In this document: positions 8,187 through 23,532 of the stretch, piece by piece | How positions within the stretch are numbered: the stretch's first letter is position 1 | Layout of the letters: the number at the start of each line of letters is the position of its first letter | Translations under genes and position numbers: made by a program | Assembly (NCBI GenBank): GCA_963718745.1 | Contig: OY970370.1 | Location: forward strand, 140,821 to 204,820 | Length of the DNA: 64,000 bases | Origin: Candidatus Fermentibacterota bacterium | GTDB taxonomy: Bacteria; Fermentibacterota; Fermentibacteria; Fermentibacterales; Fermentibacteraceae | Direction of reading: 5' to 3' | The notes under the pieces: generated by a model | Database searches by the model: none | Told to the model about the DNA's origin: nothing | Seen by the model: the letters and a program-made list of their open reading frames with translations, nothing else

Positions 8187-8837
8187 ATGGGCAACATGGA
8201 TATCGGGGGCAATCTGAAGCATCTGAAACCAGGAACCGGCAGGTGTCCGTGGGTGGACGAGGGGAAGGAGGATTATGTCCTCTATCACGACCATGAATGG
8301 GGCGTGCCCGTCCACGACGATCGCCTCTGGTTCGAGTTCCTCGCACTGGAGAGCGCCCAGGCCGGCCTCAGCTGGTACACGGTCCTCCGGAAGCGGGAGA
8401 ACTACAGGCGCGCGATGGATGGCTTCGATCCTGTGCTCATCGCGGGTTACGGCGAGGCACGCATCTCCGAACTGCTGGAGGACGCCGGGCTCATAAGAAA
8501 CCGGGCCAAGATGAAGGCGATCGTGAACAATGCGCAGAGGTTCCTGTCGATCCAGCAGGAGTTCGGGAGCTTCGACAGGTATATCTGGCGCTTCGTCGAC
8601 GGCAGGCCTGTAGTGAACGAGATAAGAAGCATAAGCGACTACCGCGCCACCAGCCCCGAATCCGACGCGCTGAGCGCGGATCTGAGGGGCAGAGGCTTCA
8701 GCTTCGTCGGATCGACCATCTGTTATGCGCACATGCAGGCTACGGGAATGGTCAACGATCACTCGATCGACTGCTTCAGGCGCAGGGAGATAATCGACTC
8801 TCTGGAGCCACCCGGGACGAAGCAGCCAACGGAATAG
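8187..8837 (+). CDS. tag: DNA-3-methyladenine glycosylase I
   Basis: RCPW..YHDHEWGVP, LESAQAGLSW, IRNRAK, FVGSTICYAHMQATGMVNDH..C; exact start uncertain. Confidence 0.95.
   Translation: MGNMDIGGNLKHLKPGTGRCPWVDEGKEDYVLYHDHEWGVPVHDDRLWFEFLALESAQAGLSWYTVLRKRENYRRAMDGFDPVLIAGYGEARISELLEDAGLIRNRAKMKAIVNNAQRFLSIQQEFGSFDRYIWRFVDGRPVVNEIRSISDYRATSPESDALSADLRGRGFSFVGSTICYAHMQATGMVNDHSIDCFRRREIIDSLEPPGTKQPTE
8212..8235 (+). repeat. Dispersed repeat, type R, copy 2 (ATCTGAAGCATCTGAAACCAGGAA)
   Basis: 24/24 identical to 29586-29609. Confidence 0.8.
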
Positions 8838-8892
8838 GCACGGGTTCCTGCGCTGTCGCCATATCAATGGGCAGCATGATGTTCCGGCTCGC

Positions 8893-8919
8893 TTTCAAGC
8901 TATTTAGACCTGGAACTGA
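8893..8919 (+). repeat. Dispersed repeat, type L, copy 2 (TTTCAAGCTATTTAGACCTGGAACTGA)
   Basis: 23/27 identical to 824-850; abuts the hypA stop codon. Confidence 0.75.
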
Positions 8920-8921
8920 TG

Positions 8922-9257
8922 CTACAGGGTTTCGACGCTCTCGACCGAGCATTCCCGCCCGGTGAGGATGTGCTTCCCGGGGTGGCCGCAAATCTGGCAG
9001 GATGCGGCAAAATCCGTTGTCTGATACTCCTCCCCGCAGCCCGTGCACCTGACCAGGGCCTGAGTGTGCGTGATCAGGAGCCTCGGATATCCGAATCCCC
9101 TCTGCGAAGCCATCTCCGAGAAGCAGAACTCGAGCGAGCCGGCAGAGACCCCTGAGAGCGGACCCAGCACCAGACTGACGGACTCGAGCCGTTCGGGGCG
9201 TCCGAGCGAGCGCTCGATGAGATCGAGTATCTCAGACGCCACGGACATTTCGTGCAT
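8922..9257 (-). CDS. hypA: Hydrogenase nickel metallochaperone HypA
   Basis: MHEMSVA N-terminus; two CxxC (CTGC, CQIC); C-terminal ILTGRE. Confidence 0.95.
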   Translation of the reverse strand: MHEMSVASEILDLIERSLGRPERLESVSLVLGPLSGVSAGSLEFCFSEMASQRGFGYPRLLITHTQALVRCTGCGEEYQTTDFAASCQICGHPGKHILTGRECSVESVETL

Positions 9258-9478
9258 GCTGCCTCCCGACCTCCCGAGGAACCATCCCGGCTCGAACCCC
9301 GTTTATAACACCGGCGGAGAGCACCCTGGCAGCGCAGCCTCCAGGGAACGCGGTCCGATTTACCCTGGGCCGTATCGCTGCATATAGTCGAACGATGCTT
9401 CGGTTCCGGCGGTTCCGTGTTCGGCCGTGCCGCCTCATAACCCGGAGCAGGCATGCCAGACAAGACCGGAGGATGTAC

Positions 9479-9745
9479 ATGTGTCTCGGTGTCCCCGGTG
9501 AGATAATCTCGACGAGCAGCTGCGATGATCCGATTCTCCGGACGGCACGCGTGAGCTTCGACGGTGTCCTGCGGGAGGTGTCGCTCGCAGGCATACCCGA
9601 GGCTTCAGTCGGTGATTTCGTGATCGTGCACGCCGGATTCGCGCTAACTCTCCTGGACAGGGCTCAGGCCGAGGAAGTGATCGGCTACCTGAGGGAGATG
9701 GGCGCAGTGATGCCGGCCGGTGCCCCCCGGAGCGGCACTCCATGA
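9479..9745 (+). CDS. hypC: Hydrogenase maturation chaperone HypC
   Basis: MCLGVPG start (ATG 9479 after GGAGG); VGDFVIVHAGFAL. Confidence 0.95.
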   Translation: MCLGVPGEIISTSSCDDPILRTARVSFDGVLREVSLAGIPEASVGDFVIVHAGFALTLLDRAQAEEVIGYLREMGAVMPAGAPRSGTP

Positions 9746-10848
9746 GATACCTCGAAGAGTTCAGGAACCCGGAAGCGGCCCGCGCTCTGGTCCGTGAGAT
9801 CTCCGATACCGTCACCCGCCCTTGGAGCGTGATGGAGGTCTGCGGCGGGCAGACCCATTCGATACTCCGCAACGGAATCGACACTCTGATGCCCGGGTGC
9901 GTGCGGCTGATACACGGACCCGGCTGCCCCGTATGCGTGACACCGGCTGTGCTGATAGACAAGGCTGCAGCCGTGGCATCCATCGAAGGCGTTACGCTCT
10001 GCACCTTCGGGGACATGCTCAGGGTCCCGGGCGGCAGGACGGACCTCCAGACCGCGAGGGCGGCGGGAGCCGACGTCAGGATGGTCTACTCTCCGATAGA
10101 CGCAGTTCGCCTGGCTGCCGCGGAACCTTCCAGGGAAATCGTCTTCTTCGCAGTGGGCTTCGAAACCACCGTCCCGGTCACGGCGACCGCCATCCTGCAG
10201 GCCGCGAGACTCGGGCTCTGCAACTTCTCCATGATAAACGCCCATGTCCGCGTTCCTCCGGTCCTGCATGCAGTCCTCTCCCGCCCATCGTGCGGCGTGA
10301 ACGGGATACTGGCGGCCGGGCACGTCTGCGCCGTCACCGGATACGAGGAATACGAGCCGATCGCTTCAGCTTACTCGGTACCGATGGTCGTCACGGGATT
10401 CGAGCCGGTGGACATCCTCCAGGGCATACTGATGTGCCTTCGCCAGCTCGAGTCCGGTTCGTGCGAGGTCGAGAACCAGTATGCCAGAGCCGTGCGCAGG
10501 ACCGGGAACCTGCAGGCGCTGGAGCTGATCTCCACGGTCTTCGAGCCTGCCGACAGGGAGTGGAGGGGGCTCGGCCTCATCCCGGGCGGCGGGTACGCCT
10601 TCAGAGAAGAATTCGACGGATTCGATGTGGAAGGCCGCTTCGACACGGGGGATACGTGTACCGGGGAACAGGAACCCGGCGACTGCATGAGCGCGCGGGT
10701 CCTGACCGGGGAGATACTGCCCCCGGAGTGCCCGGGCTTCGGGACCGGATGCACCCCCGAGCACCCGCTCGGCGCCCCCATGGTCTCCTCCGAGGGGGCC
10801 TGCGCCGCCTACCTCAGGTACAGGGGGGCTCGTGAACCACGATCCTGA
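9742..10848 (+). CDS. hypD: Hydrogenase formation protein HypD
   Basis: MEVCGGQTH, GPGCPVC, GFETT, CTPEHPLGAPMVSSEGACAAY. Confidence 0.97.
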   Translation: MRYLEEFRNPEAARALVREISDTVTRPWSVMEVCGGQTHSILRNGIDTLMPGCVRLIHGPGCPVCVTPAVLIDKAAAVASIEGVTLCTFGDMLRVPGGRTDLQTARAAGADVRMVYSPIDAVRLAAAEPSREIVFFAVGFETTVPVTATAILQAARLGLCNFSMINAHVRVPPVLHAVLSRPSCGVNGILAAGHVCAVTGYEEYEPIASAYSVPMVVTGFEPVDILQGILMCLRQLESGSCEVENQYARAVRRTGNLQALELISTVFEPADREWRGLGLIPGGGYAFREEFDGFDVEGRFDTGDTCTGEQEPGDCMSARVLTGEILPPECPGFGTGCTPEHPLGAPMVSSEGACAAYLRYRGAREPRS

Positions 10849-11890
10849 GAACCCCGCAGCCCTGACCTGCCCGCTTCCGCTGGAGGACGGACCAGGCGTG
10901 CTGCTGGCGCACGGCGGAGGCGGCACTCTCATGAGAAAGCTGATCGAGGAGTTCCTGGATGCCTTCGGCGCGCCACCTGCGCGTGACAGGCACGATGGAG
11001 CGGTCCTCGATCCCCGGGGCGGGCGCATCGCCTTCACGACCGACTCATTCGTGGTCAGACCACTCTTCTTCCCCGGAGGGGACATCGGCTCGCTTTCCGT
11101 GTTCGGCACGGTGAACGATCTGGCCATGTGCGGAGCCCGGCCTCTGTGGCTGAGCGTCGGGATGATCCTGGAAGAGGGCTTTCCGCTCGCGAAGCTGAGG
11201 GAGGTGACCGGATCCATCGCCTCATCAGCGGCTGCAGCCGGTGCGAGAGTGGTCACCGGGGACACGAAGGTAGTCGAGAAGGGGAAGTGCGACGGGATCT
11301 ACATAAACACGGCCGGGATAGGAGTGGTACCGAACGGTGTGGATGTGCGCCCGTCGAGGATAAGGCCGGGGGATGCGATAGTGGTGAACGGAGATCTCGG
11401 AAGGCATGGGATCACAATCATGACCCTGCGGGAGGGGATCTCCATCGAGGCGGGGATCGAGAGCGATCTCGCACCCCTGTCAGGCACCGTGGAGCGGATC
11501 GTACACGCCGGAATAGACATAAGGTGCATGCGCGATCTGACGAGGGGCGGCCTCGCCGCTGCTCTCTACGAGATCTCCTCCGATTCCGGACTGGACATGG
11601 ATGTCGACGAACCGTCGATTCCCGTCGACTCGAGGGTCCGGGCAGCATGCGAACTGCTGGGCTTCGACCCGGTGCATGTGGCAAACGAAGGCCGGTTCGT
11701 TGCCTTCGTACCGCCCGGCCAGGCCCGGGCTCTGATGGATGCCATGGCTGAACCGGGATCCCCGTTCCGTCCCTCCCTCATCGGCACCGTCAAGGAGGGA
11801 TCGGGGAGGGGCGTGATGCTGAGAAGTGCAATGGGAACCATGAGACCACTTTCGGTGTTGAGTGGTGAGCAGCTTCCGAGGATATGCTGA
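10832..11890 (+). CDS. hypE: Hydrogenase expression/formation protein HypE
   Basis: LAHGGGG, TTDSFVV, GTVNDLAM, DLTRGG, C-terminal LPRIC. Confidence 0.97.
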   Translation: MNHDPENPAALTCPLPLEDGPGVLLAHGGGGTLMRKLIEEFLDAFGAPPARDRHDGAVLDPRGGRIAFTTDSFVVRPLFFPGGDIGSLSVFGTVNDLAMCGARPLWLSVGMILEEGFPLAKLREVTGSIASSAAAAGARVVTGDTKVVEKGKCDGIYINTAGIGVVPNGVDVRPSRIRPGDAIVVNGDLGRHGITIMTLREGISIEAGIESDLAPLSGTVERIVHAGIDIRCMRDLTRGGLAAALYEISSDSGLDMDVDEPSIPVDSRVRAACELLGFDPVHVANEGRFVAFVPPGQARALMDAMAEPGSPFRPSLIGTVKEGSGRGVMLRSAMGTMRPLSVLSGEQLPRIC

Positions 11891-12023
11891 AACACTAGCC
11901 GGGAGCGCATCCATGAGTGTTCCGTCCGAACCGGCTCCGAAAAATTTTGTTCGTACAGCATCGACTGTGCGCTATTGGGTCTTCCGTTCCGATCACTTAT
12001 CATTAAGATAGGTATGCGAGCCG

Positions 12024-12050
12024 CCTTCCCATTGTGTGGAAGGTCTTTTT
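12024..12050 (+). terminator. Terminator-like hairpin with U-tract just upstream of the Roadblock/MglA operon
   Basis: CCTTCC-CATTGTGT-GGAAGG followed by TCTTTTT. Confidence 0.4.
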
Positions 12051-12077
12051 GTCACCCGGTATCTGGAGGTTGCTGAA

Positions 12078-12434
12078 GTGAGCGACACATCTCGTATCCT
12101 CAAGGAACTCGTAGAGGTCCAGGGCATCGAAGTGGCAGTCTGCGTCGGGCGTGATGGTTTCGTTATCGATGCCGCCTCCACCGGCAACGCTGATGCTGAT
12201 GCGATCGGTGCGATGGTCTCGACAGGCATGGGTTCCGCGGAAAGCGTCGGTCGCGAGCTGGGCGTCGGCGAGATGGCACAGGCCATGATGGAGTACGAGA
12301 AGGGCATCGTGGTTCTTTCGGCTCTGGGCACCGATGCCCTGCTGGCAGTCGTCGCCTCGAAGGACGCCAACCTCGGCAACGTCCGCCTTCAGGTGAAGCG
12401 TCGCACCATCGACCTGGAGAAGAGCCTCCGCTAG
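12078..12434 (+). CDS. Roadblock/LC7 domain protein (MglB/MglC-like)
   Basis: GTG after GGAGGT; LKELVEVQGIEVAVCVGRDGFVI..ADAIGAM..QAMMEYEKG..LLAVVASKDANLGNVRL. Confidence 0.88.
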   Translation: MSDTSRILKELVEVQGIEVAVCVGRDGFVIDAASTGNADADAIGAMVSTGMGSAESVGRELGVGEMAQAMMEYEKGIVVLSALGTDALLAVVASKDANLGNVRLQVKRRTIDLEKSLR

Positions 12435-12508
12435 ACAGACAGGCTCTTCGATCCCCGGGATCGCCGGTCTAGAAGGCCCGGACGAATTCGAAGGGAGTTC
12501 CAGGTCCT

Positions 12509-13018
12509 ATGAGAAGCGATCAGTCGAACCACAACAGCGGTATCCATTCCGAACTCGAAGAACTGATCAGATCCACCGGAGCGCTCATCAGCCTGCTGAT
12601 ATCGAGGGAAGGCGTCTGCCTGAGCCAGGCAGGGTCCCTGACCTCTCTCAACACGACTGCACTGGCCGCTCTGGTTGCGGGGATGTTCGCCGCCACGAAG
12701 GAAGTCGCCACCATAGTCGGAGAGAACCAGTTCTCCATCCTGCTGCAGCAGGGCGACAAGCGGCACATACACATCTCCCTCGTGGGCAAGCGTTCGATGA
12801 TGGTCATCGTCTTCGAGGACTACACCAGGATCGGCAGAGTGCGGATCGAGGCCAAGAAGGCCGGCGAGTCCATAGCCAGACTGCTCGACGCGCCGGTCGA
12901 GCGCGCTCCCGATGAGGATGGGGAGATCTACCTCCCCAGATTCAAGGAGTACGCCCTGAATCTTGTCGACAGGATCTTCAGGGTAGACGAAGAGGAAGAT
13001 GGCGCACATCAGCTCTGA
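12509..13018 (+). CDS. mglB: MglB-like Roadblock protein (GAP/partner of MglA)
   Basis: LLISREGVCL, TALAALVAGMFAATKEVATIVGENQFSILLQQG..IHIS..IGRVR; overlaps mglA. Confidence 0.85.
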   Translation: MRSDQSNHNSGIHSELEELIRSTGALISLLISREGVCLSQAGSLTSLNTTALAALVAGMFAATKEVATIVGENQFSILLQQGDKRHIHISLVGKRSMMVIVFEDYTRIGRVRIEAKKAGESIARLLDAPVERAPDEDGEIYLPRFKEYALNLVDRIFRVDEEEDGAHQL

Positions 13019-13580
13019 GAACCAGCAGATCGTCTTCAAACTCGTCTATTTCGGACCCGGGATGAGCGGCAAGACTACGAATCTCCACTGGATCCACGCG
13101 CAGCTCGCCGAGAAGTACAGAGGGGAGCTCCTGGTGCTCGATACCGAGAGGGAGAGGACTCTCTTCTTCGACTTCTTCCCGGTATCCCTGGGCAAGGTCG
13201 AGAACTACGCGATCAAGTTCCACCTCTATACGATCCCGGGGCAGATACACTACGAAGCGAGCAGGCGCCTCATCCTCGAAGGGGCTGACGGCGTGGCTTT
13301 CGTCGCAGACTCCCGCACCGGCCATCTCGAGAAGAACCTGCAGAGCTACAGGATGATGATCGACAACATGAGGGATCTCAGGATTCCCGTGGAGAACTTC
13401 CCGATCGTCCTGCAGTACAACAAGCGGGACCTCGTGCCGGTGCTCGAGCTGGGCAGCATCGAGAGGGAACTCGAACTGAGCGGGATCCCCGTCGTGGAAG
13501 CCGTTGCTTCCGAGGGCAGGGGAGTCATGCAGACACTGCGGATGCTCAGCATGGAAGTCATAAGGAAGTTTCAGATGTAG
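12999..13580 (+). CDS. mglA: MglA-family small Ras-like GTPase
   Basis: KLVYFGPGMSGKTTNL (G1), ERTLFFDF (switch I with intrinsic Arg), YTIPGQ (G3), GADGVAFVADS, QYNKRD (G4). Confidence 0.93.
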   Translation: MAHISSENQQIVFKLVYFGPGMSGKTTNLHWIHAQLAEKYRGELLVLDTERERTLFFDFFPVSLGKVENYAIKFHLYTIPGQIHYEASRRLILEGADGVAFVADSRTGHLEKNLQSYRMMIDNMRDLRIPVENFPIVLQYNKRDLVPVLELGSIERELELSGIPVVEAVASEGRGVMQTLRMLSMEVIRKFQM

Positions 13581-13625
13581 CTCCCCAATCGGCGCCACGC
13601 GAAGGCGCCAGACGTTTGGATTGGA

Positions 13626-14327
13626 ATGGCTCTCAAAGGAACGTTGAGCGATCTCGGGCTGGTCACTCTCCTCCAGTTCCCGAACTCCAGCCGGAGATCC
13701 GGTCTACTCACGATAACCGTCGACAACAGGCAGGCCAGCCTGTACTACGTCGACGGGAACCTCGTCCACGCAACGCTGGACAATCTTTCCGGCCAGCAGG
13801 TCCTGGTCGAGATGGTCGACTGGAAGGACGGCACCTTCTCCTTCGAGACCGGGATCACCACGGACGAGGTGACGATCAAGAAGGATCTCCACAGGCTCAT
13901 CATGTGGGCACTCAAGGAGCGCGACGAGATCAAGAAGGCGCAGTCGGAGGCCCAGCAGAACGCCCTCCAGCACACCGACGGCCATATCTTCGAGCAGGTG
14001 CTGAGGGACTTCGTGGCATCCTCCCCGAGCCACCTCTGGGCAAGCGTCATAGACTCGTCGGGCGTGATCATCGCAAGATCGGACCTGCCCAGCGACCTGT
14101 CGGAGATCGCCCCCGTGATCGTCAAATGCGTGTCCGCCTTCGTGAACTCATACCCTGGCGGAGCCCCCGACAGAGTGATCATCGAAGACGGATCCAGGAC
14201 CCTGGGTCTGATGTCCATCGACAAGAAGCTCGTCCTCCTTACCGTGGTGAAGCCGGACACGAAGATCGGCCTCATGTGCATCGCCACGAGCAGGCTTCTG
14301 GAAAGTGTGCGCAAGAAGGAGCAGTGA
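13626..14327 (+). CDS. DUF4388 (PatA-N-like) domain fused to a Roadblock-like domain
   Basis: MALKGTLSDLGLVTLLQF..SGLLTI..LYYVDGNLVHA..WKDGTFSF is DUF4388-type; C-terminus WASVIDSSGVIIA..DRVIIED..LVLLTVVKPDTKIGLM resembles Roadblock. Confidence 0.8.
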   Translation: MALKGTLSDLGLVTLLQFPNSSRRSGLLTITVDNRQASLYYVDGNLVHATLDNLSGQQVLVEMVDWKDGTFSFETGITTDEVTIKKDLHRLIMWALKERDEIKKAQSEAQQNALQHTDGHIFEQVLRDFVASSPSHLWASVIDSSGVIIARSDLPSDLSEIAPVIVKCVSAFVNSYPGGAPDRVIIEDGSRTLGLMSIDKKLVLLTVVKPDTKIGLMCIATSRLLESVRKKEQ

Positions 14328-15766
14328 TGCCGGGAGAATCTGAAATGGCGCGGATCCCGTTCGAGGAGTTCCTCAGGATCTGTACCGATTCAGGGCTGAT
14401 TGCAGAGGATACGTCCAGGCTGATACACAACTTCGCAAGGGCGCTCGGTGGCGTCGGCAGCGTTCCGCGGGTCTCCGGAGACCAGGCCGAGAGGCTCCAG
14501 AGTTTCGAGACCATCCTCTCGTTCGATTATCCCGAGAATCTGACCTTCGACAATTATGTGACCACCGAGGAGAACTACTACACCTGCGAGATCCTCCGCA
14601 CGGTCGCCTTCATCCCCAGGATCTGGAAGGCCATAGCACCAGTCTTCATCCATGCCCCGACAGGCCAGGGCAAGACGCACCTCCTCGCGGCCACGAAGAA
14701 CGCTACTTCCCGCAAGGCGCTCCTGATAAACACCCTCGACCTCGAAACCGAGCACCAGCATGCGAGGAGCGCCGGCAGGGAGCGCGAGCTCAGGGACTGG
14801 ATGATCCAGCACGACCTCATCCTCATCGACGACATCCAGTTCGCCCGGGGCAACCACGGCTTCGAGAAGTTCATCATCTCCGTGATGAACAGGATGCCGC
14901 GCGAATCCCATGGCCTGGTGATCTCGTCGGACGTCGAGCCTTCCAAGCTCTCCGGGCTCGATGCGTCACTCCTCTCGCGCCTGATGTCGGGCATCACGAT
15001 AAAGCTCGAGATCGTGAACAAGAAGGGCCGGACGGAGATACTGGAGCAGTTCTTCAATTATACGGGCATGAATCTCAACGACGACGTCGTGGACTACCTC
15101 GCCGACACCTTCACCAGCAACGTCAGGCAGCTCAAGGCTGCTGCGCGCATGGTCCTCGCCAGAGTTCTCGGAACCGGCAACGCGATGACGGTTGAATCCA
15201 CGAGGACCCTTCTCGGCTTCATGACCGAGGGCATCAAGACCGAGTCCTTCACGGAGGAGGAACTGCTCTCGACCGACAGCGATCGGTCCGAATACATCGT
15301 GGTGGAGGTCGAGGAGGAACCGGACAAGAAGCGGCGGGGTTCCGGAAAGCAGCCGTTCGTCATCGAACCGGTCCGAACTGATGCAAGGCGTTCTATTCCT
15401 GACTCGCCTGCGCCGGTCGAAGAGGCTCAGGCCCCGCGGGCTGCAAGAGAGGGTGTTCCGCAGACCGCAGCCAGGAGGGTGCCGGCAGCGGCACCGGCTC
15501 CTGTGCGGGAACCCGAACCCGTCGAGCAGCTGCCTGTGGTCCCTCCGCGTTCGGGGCGCAAGTCCGCGAGCAAGTACAGGGAGATGCTCGCCTCGGCCGA
15601 TACGGTCGAGAAGCAGACAGAGGCTCTCCGCATGGCTGTGAGCGAGAGGATAAGGCAGCTGACCGAGTCCGGGGCTGACAACATCGAGATAGGGAGGCTC
15701 CAGGTGACGCTGAAGTTCCTCGAGAGAGGCGACCTGGAATCTGCCATGCTCTCTTTGAAGACGTGA
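14327..15766 (+). CDS. DnaA/Hda-like AAA+ ATPase lacking domain IV, with Pro/Ala-rich linker and helical tail
   Basis: ATG overlaps upstream TGA; TFDNYV, PVFIHAPTGQGKTHLL (Walker A), LILIDDIQF (Walker B), LVISSD, LLSRL (Arg finger), SNVRQL (sensor II). Confidence 0.85.
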   Translation: MPGESEMARIPFEEFLRICTDSGLIAEDTSRLIHNFARALGGVGSVPRVSGDQAERLQSFETILSFDYPENLTFDNYVTTEENYYTCEILRTVAFIPRIWKAIAPVFIHAPTGQGKTHLLAATKNATSRKALLINTLDLETEHQHARSAGRERELRDWMIQHDLILIDDIQFARGNHGFEKFIISVMNRMPRESHGLVISSDVEPSKLSGLDASLLSRLMSGITIKLEIVNKKGRTEILEQFFNYTGMNLNDDVVDYLADTFTSNVRQLKAAARMVLARVLGTGNAMTVESTRTLLGFMTEGIKTESFTEEELLSTDSDRSEYIVVEVEEEPDKKRRGSGKQPFVIEPVRTDARRSIPDSPAPVEEAQAPRAAREGVPQTAARRVPAAAPAPVREPEPVEQLPVVPPRSGRKSASKYREMLASADTVEKQTEALRMAVSERIRQLTESGADNIEIGRLQVTLKFLERGDLESAMLSLKT

Positions 15767-15796
15767 TTCGAGAAAAGGTCCAGGATCGAAGCGAGG

Positions 15797-16321
15797 ATGG
15801 AAGGAGATCGTATGCTCAAGGCAGCCGACGCAGATCTCTCCAGATTCCACGGTGTCGCCTACTTGCTGGGAGCATTGGCGCACGCATCGGAATTGAATCT
15901 GGGGAAGAGCGCTCTCTCGATCTGCATGCTCGCCGGCAAGAAGTTCGGCAGAGAGGCAGTCGAAGGGGCGAAACAGACGGATGACCTGACCGAGGCTGTC
16001 GGGTTGTTGAACGATGCCCTGGCAAAACGCGGGATCGTATGGCAGTTCGAGCCTTTCAAGGGCGAATCGGACAACCTGATCCAGGACCGCGACGGCAAGA
16101 AGGTCATGAGACTCTCCTTCGGGACCTGCATGGTCCGCAATGCTCTCTTCAGGTATGCGCACGAGCAGAAGCAGTCCCTCTGCTACATGGCGCACGGCGT
16201 CTTCGCGGGGGCTATGGAGACGATCATGCCCGGGAAGGTCGTACATCTGGAGATCCTGCACGCAGGCCCGAACGGCTGCCTCAAGGAAATGATCGTGGAG
16301 GAGGCCAGGAATGAAGGCTAG
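15797..16321 (+). CDS. V4R-like (4-vinyl reductase/hydrocarbon-binding fold) protein
   Basis: AGKKFGRE helix; CMVR..LCYMAHGVFAGAM..AGPNGC Cys pattern; start may be ATG 15812 after AAGGAG. Confidence 0.7.
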   Translation: MEGDRMLKAADADLSRFHGVAYLLGALAHASELNLGKSALSICMLAGKKFGREAVEGAKQTDDLTEAVGLLNDALAKRGIVWQFEPFKGESDNLIQDRDGKKVMRLSFGTCMVRNALFRYAHEQKQSLCYMAHGVFAGAMETIMPGKVVHLEILHAGPNGCLKEMIVEEARNEG

Positions 16322-17231
16322 GGTTTCCACGGAATGGCTCTCAGGATGCTCCGGATGCCATGTGGCGATCGTCGATCTCCACGAGAAGCTGCTCAACCTC
16401 GTTGATGACGTCGAATTCGTACGGGTTCCCGTGCTCATGGACGAGAAGGGCTATCCCAAGGCGGATGTCGGGATCGTCGAAGGCGCGGTGAGGAGCGAGC
16501 ACGACAGGCACGCCCTCCTGAAGATGCGGGAGAGCTGCAAGAAGCTCCTTGCCTTCGGGACCTGCGCCGTCTACGGAGGCCCGTCGGGGCTGGGATGGCT
16601 CCACGGGAGCGACTCGATCCTTGCCAAGACTTACGGGGGCAATGTTTCCGACGCGAAGGGCTCGGTGGCTCCGACTCTCGCTCCGAAGCTGGAGGAGAGC
16701 GTCACCCCGATCGACGAAGTGGTAGACATAGACATGTATCTCGCGGGATGCCCGCCGCATCCCTTCTACATCGCCAGCGCGCTCCGGGAGCTGCTCGGCT
16801 CCGAGAGCATCCCCCTCACATCCAAGACCGTCTGCTCGGAGTGCGGCCGCAGGATGAAGAAGGCGGAGGGAGTGAAGCTCCACATGGGCGAAGTGACCGC
16901 CTCTGACCAGGAGACATGCTTCCTGAGCCAGGGCGTCGTGTGCCTCGGGAGCGTCACGCTGAACAGATGCAAGTCCCAGTGCCCCAACAAGGGCGTAGCC
17001 TGCGCGGGATGCGCCGGCCCGTCCATGGACCTGATGATCGAGCCGCATCTGGACATCAGAGGCCTGGTGGCGAAGAGGATGAGCTTGCTGACCGGCATCC
17101 CGGAGAAGGAGATAAGCGACTACATACAGCGTGATGCCAAGACCTTCTACGCTTATGCGCTCTCCTCCCCGGTGATGTACGGGAAACCCACGGTCGAGCT
17201 GCGCGAGTGGGCGGCGGAGGTCGGAAAGTGA
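16311..17231 (+). CDS. mvhG: Group 3c-like [NiFe]-hydrogenase small subunit (MvhG-like)
   Basis: WLSGCSGC, VEGAV, FGTCAVYGG, GCPP; retains medial/distal cluster Cys (TVCSEC, CFLSQGVVCLG, CKSQC, CAGCAGP); 306 aa. Confidence 0.85.
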   Translation: MKARVSTEWLSGCSGCHVAIVDLHEKLLNLVDDVEFVRVPVLMDEKGYPKADVGIVEGAVRSEHDRHALLKMRESCKKLLAFGTCAVYGGPSGLGWLHGSDSILAKTYGGNVSDAKGSVAPTLAPKLEESVTPIDEVVDIDMYLAGCPPHPFYIASALRELLGSESIPLTSKTVCSECGRRMKKAEGVKLHMGEVTASDQETCFLSQGVVCLGSVTLNRCKSQCPNKGVACAGCAGPSMDLMIEPHLDIRGLVAKRMSLLTGIPEKEISDYIQRDAKTFYAYALSSPVMYGKPTVELREWAAEVGK

Positions 17232-17268
17232 AGCATTCCTGTCCGATTCACTACCCGGGAGAGGCAAA

Positions 17269-18669
17269 ATGAAGAAAGTAATAGTGGATCCGGTCACCCG
17301 GATAGAAGGTCATGCACGGATCGTGCTCGACATCGACGATGCAGGCAAAGTGGGCAAGGGACACCTCCAGGTCCTCGAGATAAGGGGTTTCGAGAAGCTC
17401 CTCGAGAACATGGAGCTGTTCAAGATGCCCCTCATCACCGGCAGGATCTGCGGTGTGTGCCCGGCGGCCCATCACGTGGCGTCCGTGGTCGCAATCGAGA
17501 CCGGACTGGGCGCGAAGATCCCGAAGGACGCAGCCCTGCTCCGCGAACTCATGTACATGGGCCACATCCTCCACTCCCATGCCCTGAGCACTTTCGTGCT
17601 GACCGGTCCGGACGTGTTCGGCGGGATAGGTGCGAAGCCGGTTGACAGGAACGTCTTCGCCCTTCTCAAGCTCGATCCGGAGACGATCAAGAAGGTGCTG
17701 CGGCTCCGAAGCATAGGCCAGAAGACGGTCGAGATAGTCGGCGGCAGGGGAGTGCATCCGATCACCTCCATCCCCGGCGGTCTGGCAAGCCGGCCCACGA
17801 AGGAGGAGATCGCCTCCATCGCACAGTGGGGCGACGAGGCTCTGGGCATTCTCGAGGCCATAGCGCCGGTCTTCGGGAAGAAGCTGGCCGAACTCGAAGA
17901 CCTGCGCGAGCCCGCCGTGCTCGATTTCATGCCGGCGGCCCTCAGCGACAAGGGTGCCGTCGCCTTCTGGAACGCACCCTGCGTGGTGAAGAACCGCGAT
18001 GGCAGCGAGGAGAGATCCTTCCCTGCCGAGAAGTACGCGGACAACTTCGTGGAGCACGTTGCGGACGACTCCTACATGAAGTCCGTCACCCTGAGCGGGA
18101 AGCCGGAAGGAAACTTCTTCGTCGGCCCTCTGGCCAGGTGCCTGGTCAACGACAGGTTCTCCTCGCCGAAGGCGACCGCCCTGCTCGGAGAGTTCCGCTC
18201 GAAGCCCAGGAACTCCGCGCTCGACAACATGGAGGCCAGGCTTGTGGAGGCCGTTCACTCGGCCGAGCGCCTCAGCATGATAGCCGGCTCGGAACTCGGT
18301 GACGGCCCGCTCCGGGTCGAACTCCACCCCAAGGCCGGCAGGTACATCGGAATGGTCGAGGCTCCTCGCGGGATACTGATCCATGACTTCACAGCGGACG
18401 ACGCGGGCCGGATCACCTCTGCCAACCTGATAGTGGCGACGCAGAACAACTACGATGCGATCGACAGGGCCATCACCGGCCTCGCAGGCTACCTGGCTCC
18501 CGGCGGAGACGACGAGAAGCTGATGAACGGCGTCGAGTTCGCCCTGAGGTGCTTCGATCCCTGCCTGGCATGCGCCACTCACGCAGCCGGGAGGATGCCC
18601 GTCGAGATAGAGATCAGGCGCGAAGGCACCACGGTGAGGACTCTGTCCAGGGGGGAGGTCCGGTCGTGA
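17269..18669 (+). CDS. mvhA: Group 3c-like [NiFe]-hydrogenase large subunit (MvhA-like)
   Basis: PVTRIEGH, RGFE, L1 RICGVC, HSHAL, GPD, VHP..PGG, EAPRG, L2 DPCLACATH followed by a cleavable C-terminal extension. Confidence 0.92.
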   Translation: MKKVIVDPVTRIEGHARIVLDIDDAGKVGKGHLQVLEIRGFEKLLENMELFKMPLITGRICGVCPAAHHVASVVAIETGLGAKIPKDAALLRELMYMGHILHSHALSTFVLTGPDVFGGIGAKPVDRNVFALLKLDPETIKKVLRLRSIGQKTVEIVGGRGVHPITSIPGGLASRPTKEEIASIAQWGDEALGILEAIAPVFGKKLAELEDLREPAVLDFMPAALSDKGAVAFWNAPCVVKNRDGSEERSFPAEKYADNFVEHVADDSYMKSVTLSGKPEGNFFVGPLARCLVNDRFSSPKATALLGEFRSKPRNSALDNMEARLVEAVHSAERLSMIAGSELGDGPLRVELHPKAGRYIGMVEAPRGILIHDFTADDAGRITSANLIVATQNNYDAIDRAITGLAGYLAPGGDDEKLMNGVEFALRCFDPCLACATHAAGRMPVEIEIRREGTTVRTLSRGEVRS

Positions 18670-19391
18670 TAGAGATCAGGGTCGATGAGGACGCCTGCGT
18701 CGGCTGCACCCTCTGCGTCGACATCTGTCCGACCAAGGTGTTCGAGTTCGACGAGAAGAAGGGCAAGCCTGTCGTGGCAAAGCCCAAGGAGTGCTTCGGC
18801 TGCCTGAGCTGCTCCGAGATCTGCCCCGCCACGGCGATCACCCACGAGGGCATCACCCACTCCGAGAACCACTACTACGATCCGGGATCGATCCGGATCT
18901 CGCAGAAGTCGACTGGCGTGTCTCCCGAGATCAACTTCCCGCAGGATCCGGGCTCCCGCAAGAGCGCGGTGGGCGACCTCGGGATCCGGCTCCTCTCGGT
19001 GGCCTCCGTCTTCAGGCAGACGCTCGGTGGAAGCCTTCCCGCGGTGGGAACCATGGCCGGCCGCACGCTCGCCACACAGCTCCCGCGGTACCACGTGCCG
19101 GCGGACTTCGCCGAAGCCCTCCGGATGGTCGTCGATCAGCTGGCCCCCACATGGGATCTGAAAGCCGAGTACGACGGGGCGGAGAGCCTCAAGATCAAGA
19201 CCGGGAGCTGCTTCATCCGCGACCTCTGCAAGAAGGAGGGCATCCCCCTGGGAGGCGACCTCTGCATACTGTTCTACAACTACCTCGCGGGTTACCTGGG
19301 CAAGCTCTCGGGAGTCAGGCTGAAGCTCGAGAACACTGCCCCCGGAGACACCTCCTGCACATACGACATCAAGGTGTTCAGGAAGGAGTGA
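18666..19391 (+). CDS. 2[4Fe-4S] ferredoxin fused to a V4R-like domain
   Basis: GTG overlaps the large-subunit stop; CVGCTLCVDICP and CFGCLSCSEICP; C-terminal CFIRDLC..LCILFYNYLAGYL..GDTSC. Confidence 0.85.
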   Translation: MIEIRVDEDACVGCTLCVDICPTKVFEFDEKKGKPVVAKPKECFGCLSCSEICPATAITHEGITHSENHYYDPGSIRISQKSTGVSPEINFPQDPGSRKSAVGDLGIRLLSVASVFRQTLGGSLPAVGTMAGRTLATQLPRYHVPADFAEALRMVVDQLAPTWDLKAEYDGAESLKIKTGSCFIRDLCKKEGIPLGGDLCILFYNYLAGYLGKLSGVRLKLENTAPGDTSCTYDIKVFRKE

Positions 19392-19861
19392 GCCCGGATC
19401 CGGTTGCCAGGCTCGCGGTCGTAGGCATAGGGAACACCCTGGCGGGAGACGACGGAGCCGGGATAAGGGCAGTTGAGATGCTGAGAGACAGGCTGGGGGA
19501 TGCCGCTGGTCATGGCATCCTCCTCCTGACTCTCGAGGGCGACCTGCTCTCGGTCGCCGACATGCTTGAAAGCGCAGACAGCTTCATCTTCCTCGACGCG
19601 GTAGCCGGCACCCCGCCCGGACGGATCGTGAGATCCAGCTCCGCCTGCAGGGCTTTCGCCCCCTCGTTCCACCAGACCGACATCGGCACGCTCATGGCGA
19701 GGCTCAGCACGCTGGGGCTGCGCGAGCCGTTCCCCACATGGGAGATACGGGGTGTGACTATCGATCCGCCCACCTTCCTGGGGGAGGGGCTCTCACCGGA
19801 GGTCGAGGAGGCGGTCGACAGGCTGGTGGAAGACCTCGCCGCGGAGATCCGGGGATCGTGA
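19388..19861 (+). CDS. Hydrogenase maturation endopeptidase (HyaD/HybD/HycI family)
   Basis: VVGIGNTLAGDDGAG, IFLDAV, SFH, GEGLSPEV. Confidence 0.92.
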   Translation: MSPDPVARLAVVGIGNTLAGDDGAGIRAVEMLRDRLGDAAGHGILLLTLEGDLLSVADMLESADSFIFLDAVAGTPPGRIVRSSSACRAFAPSFHQTDIGTLMARLSTLGLREPFPTWEIRGVTIDPPTFLGEGLSPEVEEAVDRLVEDLAAEIRGS

Positions 19862-22131
19862 CAGTCCGACCGCCGGAGACCGCCGGCGGGGCGGCCCGGG
19901 ATTCGACCCGCCGCGTGTCCCTGACGGTCAAGGGTATCGTCCAGGGCGTCGGCTTCAGGCCCTTCCTCTTCAGGCTCGCGAGCAGACTCTGCATCACAGG
20001 CTGGTGCGTGAACAGCGGAGGAGAGGTCCGTCTCGAGATCCAGTCCACGGCCGGGGCGATAGGCGCCTTCCTCGAGCTGCTCGTCTCGGAGCTTCCACCG
20101 GCGGCATCGATCGAGTCGGTGACCACCTCGGAGATACCGGCTGTCTCTTCCGAGCGAGCCTTCGTGATCCTGCCCAGCGAGGAGAGGGCGCTCGAGCCCG
20201 GTGGCCTCTCGCCGGATCTCGCCCCGTGTCCCGCATGCCTTGCCGAGATGCGGGATCCATCTTCCAGACGCAGGGGATACGCCCTGCTTTCCTGCTCGGA
20301 CTGCGGGCCACGCTATTCCGTCAGTACCGGGCTCCCGTACGACCGCGCACTTACGACCATGGCCCCATACCCGCTCTGCTCCGCATGCGAGAGGGAGTAC
20401 CTGGATCCTTCCGACAGGAGGTTCCATGCCGAACCCCTCGCCTGTCCCGTCTGCGGTCCCCCCCTGAGGCTGGTGACCGCGGGAGGGGGCTCACGTGAGG
20501 GTGACCCTGTTGCCGATGCTGCCGGCATCCTGCATCGCGGGGGAGTCGTAGCGGTGAAGGGGGCGGGAGGATACCTCCTGGCTGCAAACGCCTGTGACGA
20601 CGCAGTACTGGAGAGGGTCAGGAGATCCAAGAACCGCCCGTGGAAACCCCTGGCCGTGATGGTCGGAGACCTTGCCTCGGCAGCTGGCCTGGTCCTGCTG
20701 GACGGTGCGTCAGCCGAGGCACTCTGCTCTCCAGCCGCACCCATCGTCATAGCACGGGCCAGACCGGGCAGCCGCCTCTCCCGCCTGGTGGCTCCCGGCA
20801 TGTCGACGATCGGGGTGATGCTCCCCTCGACCCCGCTCCAGCAGATGCTGCTGGATGCCTTCGACGGTCCTCTTGTCATGACTTCCGGCAACGACGCGGA
20901 GGATCCCATCATCACCGAAGACTCGGACGCCCTGTCCTCCCTGGACGCGGATTCCTTCATCATGCACGACCGGAGGATAGAGGGGGCGCTGGATGACAGT
21001 GTCGTCATACCGCCGATAATCGTCAGGCGCTCGCGGGGTTTCGTCCCGAGGATCGTGAAGGCGGCGTTCAACACCCCGGTACCCATCGTGGCGGCTGGAG
21101 CGGATCAGAGCGCGACATTCGCGTTGATGCGGAACGACAGGCTCCTCCCGGGGAGGCCGATCGGCGATCTGGACGGCCCTGCAGCCGCCCGGACATGGCG
21201 GGTCGAGCTGGACAGGATGCTATCGCAGTACGGGGTCGACAGGGCGGTAGTAGCCGCCGACCTCCACCCGGGTTACCGTTCCAGGGCGCTTGCAGAGGAA
21301 CTGGCGGGCTCACGGGGATGGAAGGTCTTCGTGGTCCAGCACCATTTCGCGCACATGTGCTCCGTGATGCTGGAACACGGCCTCGACCCCTCCGCGAAAG
21401 CCGTCGGCCTGATACTGGACGGAACCGGCTACGGTCCCGACGGATCGATCTGGGGTTGCGAGATGCTCGAGGGCGGCCTCGAAGGCTACAGGAGAGCCGG
21501 CCATCTGAAGCAGGTGCCCATGCCAGGAGGAGAGGCGGCGGTGCGCGAACCCAGACGCATGGCGGCCTCGCACCTGAGGTCGGCAGGCCTGGTGCACGAC
21601 TGGCCGGCGCTCGACCAGGTCATGGACTCGCGGAGCCTCTCGCCGCTGACCTCGAGCGCGGGGCGGCTTTTCGATGCCGCCGCATATGTCCTGGGTATAT
21701 GCCCGCCGCGTGTCTCCTGCCAGGCGGAGGCGGCAATGCTGCTGGAGTCCGCCGCCGATCCGGAGGAGACCCTCTCCTTCGACATGGATGTGGACTCCTC
21801 GTTCGTGATCGATCCTTCGAGGGCTTTCGAGCGTCTTCTGGACGGGAGCATCCCTGTGCCGGCGAGGGCCGCCGGATTCCACAACGGTCTGGCCGGAGCC
21901 CTATGCAGGGCCGCGACCGGAATCCTGGATGGAAGGGATCTGCCCGTGGTGCTTGCAGGAGGCTGCTGGGCCAACACTCTCCTCCTGCGGGCGGTCCGTT
22001 CCGGCCTGGAGGGCGCGGGTCTGGATGTGATGTTCGGCAGGGAACTGCCGGTGGGCGACGGAGCGGTGGCCGCAGGCCAGGCGGCGGCGGTCGCTGCGAT
22101 GCTCCCCGTTGGACGGGAGCGGGCTGTCTGA
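19858..22131 (+). CDS. hypF: Carbamoyltransferase HypF
   Basis: GIVQGVGFRPF acylphosphatase domain, zinc fingers CPAC/CSDCGPR/CSAC/CPVCGP, KPLAVM, DLHPGY, QHHFAH, DGTGYG, TSSAGRLFD. Confidence 0.96.
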   Translation: MTVRPPETAGGAARDSTRRVSLTVKGIVQGVGFRPFLFRLASRLCITGWCVNSGGEVRLEIQSTAGAIGAFLELLVSELPPAASIESVTTSEIPAVSSERAFVILPSEERALEPGGLSPDLAPCPACLAEMRDPSSRRRGYALLSCSDCGPRYSVSTGLPYDRALTTMAPYPLCSACEREYLDPSDRRFHAEPLACPVCGPPLRLVTAGGGSREGDPVADAAGILHRGGVVAVKGAGGYLLAANACDDAVLERVRRSKNRPWKPLAVMVGDLASAAGLVLLDGASAEALCSPAAPIVIARARPGSRLSRLVAPGMSTIGVMLPSTPLQQMLLDAFDGPLVMTSGNDAEDPIITEDSDALSSLDADSFIMHDRRIEGALDDSVVIPPIIVRRSRGFVPRIVKAAFNTPVPIVAAGADQSATFALMRNDRLLPGRPIGDLDGPAAARTWRVELDRMLSQYGVDRAVVAADLHPGYRSRALAEELAGSRGWKVFVVQHHFAHMCSVMLEHGLDPSAKAVGLILDGTGYGPDGSIWGCEMLEGGLEGYRRAGHLKQVPMPGGEAAVREPRRMAASHLRSAGLVHDWPALDQVMDSRSLSPLTSSAGRLFDAAAYVLGICPPRVSCQAEAAMLLESAADPEETLSFDMDVDSSFVIDPSRAFERLLDGSIPVPARAAGFHNGLAGALCRAATGILDGRDLPVVLAGGCWANTLLLRAVRSGLEGAGLDVMFGRELPVGDGAVAAGQAAAVAAMLPVGRERAV

Positions 22132-22150
22132 TGAAGGGAAGGGTTTTCGC

Positions 22151-22813
22151 GTGATTCGAAGGATGAACACAGGCGTGATGAGGAGGAACGAGGAGGAGGC
22201 AGCCGGGAACAGGGCGCTGCTGGATGGTCTCGAGATCCTGGGGATCAACATCATGAGCTCGCCCGGCTCCGGGAAGACCACGCTCCTGGAGAGCCTGGGC
22301 CGTATCCTCGGATCGGAGATGGCCGTCATCGAGGGCGACGTGAAGACCAGGAGGGACGCGGAGAGGCTGGAGGAGATCGGGATCAAGGCCTGGCAGATCG
22401 AGACAGGCGGCGCCTGTCATCTGGACGCCCTTTCCGTAGGGAGCGCCATTTCGAGCCTGGGACTCAGGAAGGGCGTACAGAAGTTCCTCGTCATAGAGAA
22501 TGTCGGCAACCTGATCTGCCCCAGCTCCTATGATCTGGGCGAACGCCTCAGGATCGGCCTCCTGTCGCTTCCGGAGGGTGACGACAAGGTCCTCAAGTAC
22601 CCGTCGCTCTTCAGCCGGATCGACCTCCTGCTCCTGACGAAAACGGATCTTGCCCCATACCTCGATTTCGACCTGGGGAGGGCCGAGGCCGAGTGCAGAA
22701 GCATCAACCCGGGACTCGTGACGATCGCTGTCAGCTCTGCAACCGGCGCGGGTGTGGACGAGGTTGTCTCCCTGTTCAGGAAGCGCTACGGAGAGGTCTG
22801 GGGAGGCGCCTGA
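22151..22813 (+). CDS. hypB: Hydrogenase nickel incorporation GTPase HypB (no His-rich N-terminus)
   Basis: SSPGSGKTTLLE, IEGD, TGGACHLDA, IENVGNLICP, TKTDL; start GTG 22151 or ATG 22163. Confidence 0.95.
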   Translation: MIRRMNTGVMRRNEEEAAGNRALLDGLEILGINIMSSPGSGKTTLLESLGRILGSEMAVIEGDVKTRRDAERLEEIGIKAWQIETGGACHLDALSVGSAISSLGLRKGVQKFLVIENVGNLICPSSYDLGERLRIGLLSLPEGDDKVLKYPSLFSRIDLLLLTKTDLAPYLDFDLGRAEAECRSINPGLVTIAVSSATGAGVDEVVSLFRKRYGEVWGGA

Positions 22814-23532
22814 CCGTCCCTTCCCAGAGCGCGGAGAAGAGCCCGCATCTCTGCTGGGTCGAATGCGCGGAGGCCGTCTCCGCCTGTTCGTGAGAACGAG
22901 CCATGGATCCATCCGGAACCGGTTGCCATGACGAGTCCGGGGGCGTTGGACGCCCGGATTCCTCCGCCCGGGAGTATCTCGATGGTGTCTCCCGCGTGCT
23001 CGATCAGCCCGGCCAGGCATCGTGCACCCTCCGGGGCGGACGCGGCGCCACCGGATGTGAGAACGCGCACGACACCCAGATCGATGAGCGAATCCAGTGC
23101 GGACAGCTTGTCAGACACGAGGTCGAAGGCCCTGTGGAAAATGATAGGGATCCCGCCAGCCGCCTCCCGGACCCTCTCGATGAAGCCGGTGTCGATCCCG
23201 TGGTCGTGCGTCAGGGCGCCGGTTACAAATCCTCCCGTGCCGAGCGATGCGAAATCCCTGCAGGTCCTGATGGCCATCCCGGCCTCCGCATCGTCGAAGA
23301 CGAAGCCGCCCGGTCTCGGCCGGACCAGCACGACGACCGGAACGGAAAGGCATTCCAGAGCTGCGAGGATATCCGACCTCTCAGGTGAGACCCCGCCCGT
23401 TTCCAGCCTTCGGCAGAGCTCGATCCTGTCGGCCCCGCACGCGGCTGCGGAAGAGGCATCGGCCGGGGAGCCCGCCGCCACCTCCACAGACACGTCGGAA
23501 AGAAGGGGAGGCCGGACGGGATGCGCCCTCAT
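22786..23532 (-). CDS. cutC: Copper homeostasis protein CutC
   Basis: GADRIELC..GGVSP, VRPRPGGF, FHRAFD, RVLTSGG, ILPGGGI. Confidence 0.93.
   Translation of the reverse strand: MRAHPVRPPLLSDVSVEVAAGSPADASSAAACGADRIELCRRLETGGVSPERSDILAALECLSVPVVVLVRPRPGGFVFDDAEAGMAIRTCRDFASLGTGGFVTGALTHDHGIDTGFIERVREAAGGIPIIFHRAFDLVSDKLSALDSLIDLGVVRVLTSGGAASAPEGARCLAGLIEHAGDTIEILPGGGIRASNAPGLVMATGSGWIHGSFSRTGGDGLRAFDPAEMRALLRALGRDGQAPPQTSP

Follow-up and report, generated by a model that had tools for sequence, protein, structure and literature searches.

A DnaA-like AAA+ ATPase family without DnaA domain IV, encoded in MglA/MglB GTPase modules of Fermentibacterota and Desulfomonilaceae

To our knowledge, the described DnaA-type AAA+ modules almost all belong to DNA replication, where they occur in DnaA and Hda, or to helicase loading. 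We identified a gene for a DnaA-like AAA+ ATPase in a 64,000-nucleotide stretch of the genome of a Candidatus Fermentibacterota bacterium (assembly GCA_963718745.1, contig OY970370.1, positions 140,821 to 204,820 of the forward strand; hereafter, the window), in an operon with genes for an MglA-type small GTPase, MglB, and Roadblock and PATAN proteins. The encoded protein consists of a DnaA-type AAA+ module without DnaA domains I, II and IV, to which novel N- and C-terminal parts are joined. Its ATP switch and trans-acting arginine finger are kept, the DNA-binding elements are dropped and the operon is of the MglA/MglB/Roadblock/PATAN kind, which suggests that the assembly switch of the initiator has been reused for signaling or polarity.

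The closest described relative is DnaA itself, whose domain III has the same fold and the same Walker A, Walker B, arginine finger and sensor II elements, with the sensor I aspartate shared by part of the new family. DnaA also has domains I, II and IV and the H/B motifs for single-stranded DNA (ssDNA), whereas the DnaA-like family lacks these, scores far under the DnaA equivalog cut-off, forms a separate clade and is found in a GTPase context. Hda (HdaA), the inactivator of DnaA, is likewise a DnaA-type AAA+ protein that lacks domain IV and keeps the arginine finger, but it has about 230–250 amino acids and consists of the AAA+ part only; the protein studied here is twice as long, carries extra terminal domains and scores under the Hda cut-off. 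Hda binds the beta clamp through an N-terminal QL(S/P)L motif. DnaC and IstB belong to the same initiator clade of AAA+ proteins and give weak Pfam and NCBIfam matches, but the scores are under the cut-offs and no helicase or transposase context is present.

The GTPase genes recall the MglA/MglB polarity switch of Myxococcus xanthus and Thermus thermophilus, which also involves RomR, RomX, RomY and MglC: MglA and MglB are clearly recognizable as neighbors, and the extra Roadblock proteins are reminiscent of MglC. RomR combines a Pro-rich disordered linker with a conserved C-terminal part, a layout comparable to that of the DnaA-like ATPase. PATAN regulators of the PatA/PixE type are fused to a receiver, whereas the PATAN domain here is joined to a Roadblock-like half and paired with the DnaA-like ATPase. 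We know of no AAA+ ATPase in the described MglA systems of Myxococcus or Thermus, and none appeared in the literature searched. That literature, with supplementary tables outside the scope, does not describe any DnaA-like ATPase encoded within an MglA, Roadblock or PATAN module. Gene neighborhoods of MglA/MglB with PATAN were noted earlier in PMC4316618, whose main text has 0 occurrences of ‘DnaA’ (Supplementary Table S2, on gene neighborhoods, being outside the scope), and the article on Hyd24-12 genomes (PMC5030696) mentions pili and hydrogenases, not MglA or DnaA. For MglA systems outside Myxococcus, few of whose partners are known, the DnaA-like family supplies a candidate for a missing component.

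AAA+ module and terminal domains of the DnaA-like protein

The first-pass annotation, made from the sequence alone, had described a DnaA domain III ATPase that lacks both the helix-turn-helix (HTH) domain IV and the Hda-type clamp motif, with an N-terminus of no known kind, an acidic then Pro/Ala-rich linker and a helical C-terminal domain; this picture held up at every point. The six AAA+ motifs that it quoted are all present in the translation: TFDNYV (residues 73–78), HAPTGQGKTHLL (109–120), LILIDDIQF (164–172), ISSD (200–203), LLSRL (215–219) and SNVRQL (264–269). Pfam mapping, which it had proposed as a check, gave a match to Bac_DnaA (PF00308, E 5.3e-23, residues 71–225) and none to Bac_DnaA_C (PF08299, domain IV), either in the full protein or in the last 79 amino acids at E up to 10. 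DnaA domain I (PF11638) had no Pfam match in the protein, and the QL(S/P)L string is absent from the entire translation. Alignment to the NCBIfam DnaA model (TIGR00362) covers residues 69–300 and reaches 147.1 bits (E 7.7e-43) against a cut-off of 343.9; the Hda model (TIGR03420) gives 92.7 bits against 194.8, and Pfam IstB_IS21 (PF01695) stays below its threshold with 20.5 against 24.1 bits (E 3.8e-4). The host genome, a single 2.52-Mb contig, also encodes an ordinary DnaA of 454 aa, complete with domain IV, at a distance of 1.3 Mb from the DnaA-like gene.

An AlphaFold2 (AF2) model built on 49 family sequences has a mean predicted local distance difference test score (pLDDT) of 75 and is confident for the AAA+ base and lid (residues 70–300, pLDDT about 90). 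The best Foldseek match of this part is domain III of Bacillus subtilis DnaA (8bv3_A; target-normalized template modeling score, TMt, 0.90; root-mean-square deviation, rmsd, 1.9 Å), and the DnaAs of Thermotoga maritima and Aquifex aeolicus also match. Hda structures fit worse (TMt 0.69–0.74, rmsd 4.4–4.9). As in DnaA, where it favors open spirals, the fold has the initiator-type helical insertion between strands 2 and 3.

Residues were compared among 25 family members (here called paralogs) and 41 true DnaAs, aligned to DnaA of Escherichia coli K-12. The Walker A Lys/Thr, the Walker B Asp pair, the box VII arginine finger (E. coli R285) and the sensor II arginine (R334) are invariant in 25/25 paralogs, and the sensor I aspartate is present in 18/25. 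The Walker A lysine, Walker B and sensor II are also invariant when the comparison is widened to 18 more distant members. According to PMC9198467, V211 and R245 of E. coli DnaA constitute the H/B motifs, which are required to bind the unwound origin strand. The V211 position is V, I or M in 37/41 DnaAs and Q, R, K, E or D in 25/25 paralogs, while the R245 position is R or K in 31/41 DnaAs and basic in 1/25 paralogs. Nearby, K243 is a lysine in 34/41 DnaAs and D, N or E in 20/25 paralogs, and the threonine that follows R245 in 34/41 DnaAs is F, L or V in every paralog. The ssDNA-holding positions of DnaA are replaced in the DnaA-like family, and we infer that DNA binding itself was lost.

Ahead of the AAA+ module, the protein has a helical hairpin whose motif, L..FL..C...G.I....A, is kept across the family alignments and belongs to no known family. 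The hairpin profile is unlike domain I (hhalign probability 0.2% against DnaA), and Pfam searches with 7/7 family N-termini at E up to 10 returned nothing, bar two chance-level matches in one of them. By eye, the hairpin is similar to an ‘alpha-clip’ or PilB N-terminus unit (L..FL..x.G.I, in the first 40 residues of the PilB-like ATPases of the genome); this likeness was not supported, with an hhalign probability of 4.1% over 13 columns. Following the lid is a disordered linker with a short hydrophobic-acidic motif (SEYIVVEVEEE; Ser-Pro/Glu-Tyr-Ile-Val-Val-Asp/Glu-Ile/Val, then acidic residues). The motif is kept in the Fermentibacterota members, was not seen in the wider-family alignment, and is a candidate short linear binding motif.

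Folded alone by AF2, the C-terminal domain forms a four-helix bundle (pLDDT 88), in which acidic residues are abundant. Its profile gives an hhalign probability of 0.5% against full-length DnaAs, and Pfam at E up to 10 returned no family, including HTH and other nucleic-acid-binding families. Foldseek of the isolated domain retrieved only generic four-helix bundles (cytochrome b562/BRIL) at E 0.4 or worse, and ESM Atlas look-alikes for residues 405–479 and 1–68 included no usable match. Searched against 1.84 billion representatives, the C-terminal profile matched 115 proteins at E up to 0.001, 76 of them at 1e-10 or better. Pfam annotation of 62 long proteins (61 matches and the window protein) found Bac_DnaA in 54, Bac_DnaA_C in 0 and DUF4388 in 5, one of which (P0205) also has Robl_LC7; this count is without 53 shorter matches (probably gene fragments), the long top matches P0003, P0024, P0067, P0129, P0132 and P0140, and the repeat-like P0231. 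The C-terminal domain thus occurs on PATAN–Roadblock proteins too. The proteins of this type (P0205, P0207, P0223, P0228 and P0232 and, by eye, P0196 and P0219) have about 350–375 aa and comprise a PATAN domain with a helical insertion, a Roadblock-like middle part and the C-terminal four-helix domain.

Alternatively, the C-terminal domain may bind DNA or RNA, and the protein would then act in transcription or on the nucleoid in an ATP-dependent way. Some small helical bundles are able to bind nucleic acids and the ancestor bound DNA, but the domain is acidic, is shared with PATAN–Roadblock proteins, and found neither a nucleic-acid family nor a specific fold match in the searches above. We consider such a role very unlikely.

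Distribution of the family and its relation to DnaA, Hda and a third MglA

A word-indexed search returned full-length Fermentibacterota relatives (35–93% identity), none with domain IV, and a second group of proteins, about 385 aa in length, that share the N-terminal motif and the C-terminal domain. By a scan of species-representative genomes, the second group was assigned to the Desulfomonilaceae (6 loci); the other 74 loci were ordinary DnaAs. The DnaA-like gene is present in 41/70 Fermentibacterota genomes, as well as in Desulfomonilaceae and on metagenome contigs, and an ordinary DnaA match was obtained in 70/70 of the Fermentibacterota genomes. Within the phylum of the Desulfomonilaceae, the C-terminal profile was positive in 4/301 sampled genomes, the centre genome included. 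The Desulfomonilaceae genomes G070–G073 (loci L053–L058, L138, L142 and L144) contain the whole module in one to three copies, and one metagenome-assembled genome has three (L054–L056).

The AAA+ regions of 83 rows were placed in a quick maximum-likelihood tree (LG+G4, unrooted). The 25 paralogs, which come from two phyla, form one group (Shimodaira–Hasegawa-like approximate likelihood ratio test, SH-aLRT, 95) outside 43 true DnaAs, including the DnaA of both hosts, and apart from E. coli Hda. Every second true-DnaA locus of L059–L132 was dropped from the rows, as were L138–L141, L143 and L147, presumed duplicates of L053–L058; L138 turned out to be distinct, a second copy in G072, and L142 is the same gene as L057. 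By sequence, the DnaA-like proteins are a distinct family derived from the AAA+ module of DnaA.

Most sampled Fermentibacterota genomes share a pair of MglA paralogs, which in the genome studied here lie about 8 kb apart, some 24–32 kb past the window end (G000:C1:228524–229084 and 236675–237226; 46% and 41% identity); the MglA of the window is a third, accessory copy. All 69 genomes with a match have MglA paralogs about 40–48% identical to the window MglA, usually two, and the third MglA (56–91% identity) is found in 41 Fermentibacterota genomes. Of the 70 genomes, 40 have both the DnaA-like gene and the third MglA, and 28 have neither. In the 2/70 discordant genomes, G032 (84% complete) and G059 (77%), the single gene of the pair lies at the edge of a contig. 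Within genera, presence is scattered (16/26, 14/19, 4/8 and 1/2), suggesting repeated gain or loss as a unit.

These results bear on the two interpretations that had been offered at first, a repurposed signaling ATPase acting as an MglA effector, or a co-oligomer or inactivator of DnaA that answers to H2 status. The former is favored by synteny and by co-occurrence with the third MglA, whereas the latter gained no specific support, as the family is a separate clade, its H/B-motif residues are lost and its hydrogenase linkage is confined to Fermentibacterota. An Hda-like replication regulator would insert its arginine finger into DnaA-ATP or co-oligomerize with DnaA, and so make initiation depend on the GTPase switch or on H2/energy status. 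The AAA+ module is indeed nearest to DnaA domain III in both structure and NCBIfam score, and with the arginine finger and sensor II intact in all paralogs a hetero-oligomer with DnaA is sterically conceivable. However, the clamp-binding motif is missing, Hda structures fit less well, E. coli Hda branches elsewhere, and the arginine at the R281 position, kept in 40/41 DnaAs, is found in only 8/25 paralogs. The gene is also distant from dnaA, accessory rather than universal, and tracks an MglA paralog and nothing replication-related. An Hda-like role is, in our judgment, quite unlikely.

Other DnaA-type sequences were encountered in these searches. P0072–P0093, P0113 and P0116 form a separate family of about 650 aa with two tandem DnaA-type AAA+ modules, a conserved middle region, a C-terminal W-D-W-P motif and no domain IV; one source names Gemmatimonadales. 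This tandem family matches the window protein better than true DnaAs do, with E values down to about 5e-34, and its halves are placed differently in the quick tree. Of the short DnaA-type AAA+ frames of 250–290 aa (L145, L148, L150 and L152, in G072 and G073), two group with E. coli Hda in this tree and the other two sit on long branches close to the paralogs. A 120-residue DnaA-like remnant with an in-frame TGA is present at G062:C25:14582–14938.

The accessory GTPase module

In the window, the gene order on one strand is hypC, hypD, hypE; Robl1; MglB; MglA; PATAN–Roadblock; DnaA-like; orf174; hydrogenase small and large subunits; ferredoxin-like protein; maturation protease; hypF; hypB (Table 1). 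The neighborhood agrees with the first-pass description and comprises two Roadblock proteins, MglA, a DUF4388 protein, a NiFe hydrogenase and hyp genes. The window MglB matches M. xanthus MglB in the Protein Data Bank (PDB; 6izw_B, E 9.8e-20), and the end of its gene overlaps the mglA start. By position, and by analogy with the Robl_LC7 match of the related fusion P0205, the C-terminal half of the window PATAN protein is probably Roadblock-like. The ATG of the DnaA-like gene (14327–14329) shares one base with the TGA of this upstream gene (14325–14327; TGATG), an overlap also found in many orthologs, and AAGGAG lies 6–11 nucleotides 5' of the start.

Table 1. Features of the DnaA-like gene and of neighboring genes in the window (positions are those of the window)
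Feature	Position	Strand	Description
DnaA-like AAA+ ATPase gene	14327..15766	+	479 aa (codons); Pfam, NCBIfam, AF2, Foldseek
N-terminal helical hairpin	14360..14443	+	residues 12–39; AF2 helices 12–21 and 27–39, pLDDT 85–90
DnaA-type AAA+ module with lid	14522..15226	+	residues 66–300; Foldseek, residue alignment
Walker A K116/T117	14672–14677	+	in AAA+ module
Walker B D168/D169	14828–14833	+	in AAA+ module
Arginine finger R218	14978–14980	+	in AAA+ module
Sensor II R267	15125–15127	+	in AAA+ module
Linker, disordered, acidic then Pro/Ala-rich	15239..15550	+	residues 305–408; pLDDT below 50
C-terminal four-helix domain	15551..15760	+	residues 409–478; family signature
Robl1, Roadblock/LC7	12036..12434	+	132 aa from GTG, start uncertain; Pfam Robl_LC7 1e-16
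MglB-type Roadblock, presumed GTPase-activating protein of MglA	12509..13018	+	169 aa; Robl_LC7 5.5e-11; NCBIfam MglB 5.2e-22, under cut-off
MglA-type small GTPase	12999..13580	+	193 aa; T. thermophilus MglA 3t12_A 6.1e-57, residues 2–188
PATAN (DUF4388) + Roadblock-like	13626..14327	+	233 aa; Pfam DUF4388 2.5e-18, residues 4–102
orf174	15797..16321	+	conserved, before hydS; Pfam V4R E 0.055 only
[NiFe] hydrogenase small subunit	16311–17231	+	Pfam Oxidored_q6
[NiFe] hydrogenase large subunit	17269–18669	+	Pfam NiFeSe_Hases

Gene order was compared by tBLASTn with the window proteins at loci whose flank upstream of the DnaA-like gene measures 1.5 kb or more. At these 34 loci (20 from Fermentibacterota, 8 from Desulfomonilaceae, that is, 6 and two further copies, and 6 on metagenome contigs), the PATAN–Roadblock gene is directly upstream of the DnaA-like gene without exception (34/34), and MglA precedes the PATAN–Roadblock gene in 31/34. 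In related modules, the Robl1 ortholog either precedes MglB or follows the DnaA-like gene. On the metagenome contigs L158, L162, L163 and L164 (DnaA-like gene at contig end), a Roadblock gene lies downstream. The Desulfomonilaceae have a response regulator–PATAN gene before MglB in 6/6 loci, and at L058 genes for a PAS histidine kinase, a receiver and a sigma-54 activator are found upstream.

The patchy distribution and the weak IstB_IS21 match would be compatible with a mobile-element helper ATPase (IstB/DnaC-like) or a defense-system component. We find this hardly credible: the IstB score is under the cut-off, no transposase or helicase gene lies near the DnaA-like gene, gene order is stable across phyla, and PADLOC defense models gave nothing below E 0.001.

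A DnaA module without its DNA-binding parts, encoded beside MglA/MglB and adaptors, probably works in a signaling switch. We propose, with moderate confidence, that the DnaA-like protein is a component of an accessory MglB–MglA–PATAN/Roadblock–(Roadblock) module, in which it may serve as an ATP-dependent self-assembling scaffold or effector and not as a replication initiator. The protein would bind ATP and assemble head to tail into an open oligomer, as DnaA does, through an arginine finger acting in trans, having given up the grip on ssDNA. The terminal domains and linker may dock the Roadblock/PATAN adaptors and, through them, MglA. ATP-driven assembly would then act as a scaffold, effector or timer of the MglA cycle, whose output might be polarity, type IV pilus control or something else. 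The oligomerization, the physical partners and the cellular output, like the loss of DNA binding, are predictions drawn from the data above. According to a preprint, PATAN proteins bind the pilus motor PilB1/PilC in Synechocystis (bioRxiv 10.1101/2021.06.11.447907). Together with the MglA/MglB–PATAN neighborhoods noted in PMC4316618 and the PilB/GspE-type ATPases present in 26/26 sampled Fermentibacterota genomes, this makes pilus or polarity control a reasonable guess.

Several points weigh against this proposal. We infer the partnership of the ATPase with MglA, MglB and Roadblock proteins from genomic association and domain fusion, and related genomes are not independent, so that the co-occurrence counts overstate the support. 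Three loci (L041, L042 and L144) are without an adjacent MglA and keep MglB–PATAN/Roadblock–DnaA-like. No pilus gene is found within the module, and it has no direct tie to pili. By eye, the arginine finger is missing in 4/18 wider-family representatives (P0170, P0177, P0211 and P0216), and hydrolysis activated in trans may therefore not be essential. The C-terminal four-helix domain could bind DNA or something unrelated. Finally, the tree is unrooted and has long branches; it shows separateness and not the order of events. Since the C-terminal profile is a clear signature and the host lineages include one with a cultured genus, Desulfomonile, the family is accessible to ordinary biochemistry.

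The hydrogenase association in Fermentibacterota

The hydrogenase large subunit of the window is nearest to cytosolic group-3 enzymes among solved chains (7t2r_D, E 5e-83; MvhA 5odc_F, E 1.2e-82). A hydrogenase is adjacent to the module in 15/20 Fermentibacterota loci, in which phylum orf174 adjoins hydS, and an ortholog of the large subunit (53% identity or more) is present in 33/41 genomes with the DnaA-like gene versus 4/29 without it; two of those four hydrogenase-positive genomes carry module fragments. The remaining 5/20 loci have no adjacent hydrogenase, which in two of those genomes is located elsewhere. The fetched flanks of the Desulfomonilaceae loci (6/6) and of the metagenome loci contain no hydrogenase, and the best match to the window hydrogenase in the Desulfomonilaceae genomes has 38% identity, with no close ortholog. 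The hydrogenase linkage is real yet lineage-specific, confined to Fermentibacterota. The GTPase module is the conserved core. The first-pass annotation had coupled the gene to a GTPase/hydrogenase operon: the GTPase part extends across two phyla and metagenome contigs, where the homologs remain linked to the GTPase genes and have a C-terminal region other than domain IV, but the hydrogenase part holds in Fermentibacterota only.

Evidence from RNA was drawn from Logan contigs of relatives, 90–99% alike and covering parts of the region, and no run contained half of the query words; uncovered parts carry no information. One 2.5-kb contig from an RNA library of a relative runs from the 3' portion of the DnaA-like gene across orf174 to hydS and is a weak hint of co-expression; DNA carry-over is possible, and the contig is not a transcript. 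A scan of positions 8800–23200 was uninformative, with 3 promoter and 4 terminator predictions against 2.3 and 6.2 in shuffles and no terminator-like site on the + strand in 12045–23200. In Fermentibacterota, the module was probably inserted into the hyp/[NiFe]-hydrogenase cluster and is probably co-expressed with it.

It is conceivable that the MglA/Roadblock/AAA+ set is instead a specific accessory of the group-3 [NiFe] hydrogenase, for its assembly, localization or H2-dependent regulation. The module lies between hypCDE and hydrogenase/hypF/hypB on one strand with small gaps, adjacency and ortholog counts point the same way, a Robl1–MglB–MglA set stands directly before the hydrogenase at L041 and L042, and the RNA contig, weak as it is, bridges the two. 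This view does not account for the Desulfomonilaceae and metagenome loci, which have no neighboring hydrogenase, for the 8/41 module genomes in which the large-subunit ortholog is missing with this query, or for the non-adjacent Fermentibacterota loci, and we regard it as unlikely.

A bolder idea, which we put forward tentatively and consider rather doubtful, combines the proposed GTPase-module component with the hydrogenase link. A DnaA-derived filament or spiral ATPase would be the platform that holds Roadblock adaptors and a Ras-like GTPase, wired in Fermentibacterota to hydrogenase expression, and would couple H2 status with polarity or surface behavior. In architecture, such an ATPase–adaptor–GTPase platform would resemble the Ragulator/Rag platforms of eukaryotes. 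If this is true, the DnaA module would have gained its first role away from DNA, and MglA a regulator of a new class.

Further observations concern the genes around the hydrogenase. The ferredoxin-like protein encoded at 18675–19391 has a weakly ATC_hydrolase-like C-terminal half. At G042:C2 (L050; genome 71% complete, with 6% contamination), frameshifts or a poor assembly have broken up the DnaA-like and hydrogenase matches. V4R-type domains recur around the module and the hydrogenase, as a weak match in orf174 and at L041. At the latter locus (L041:10742–14679, in G068), three XylR_N/V4R proteins and a class-V aminotransferase are encoded between the DnaA-like gene and a second Robl1–MglB–MglA set.

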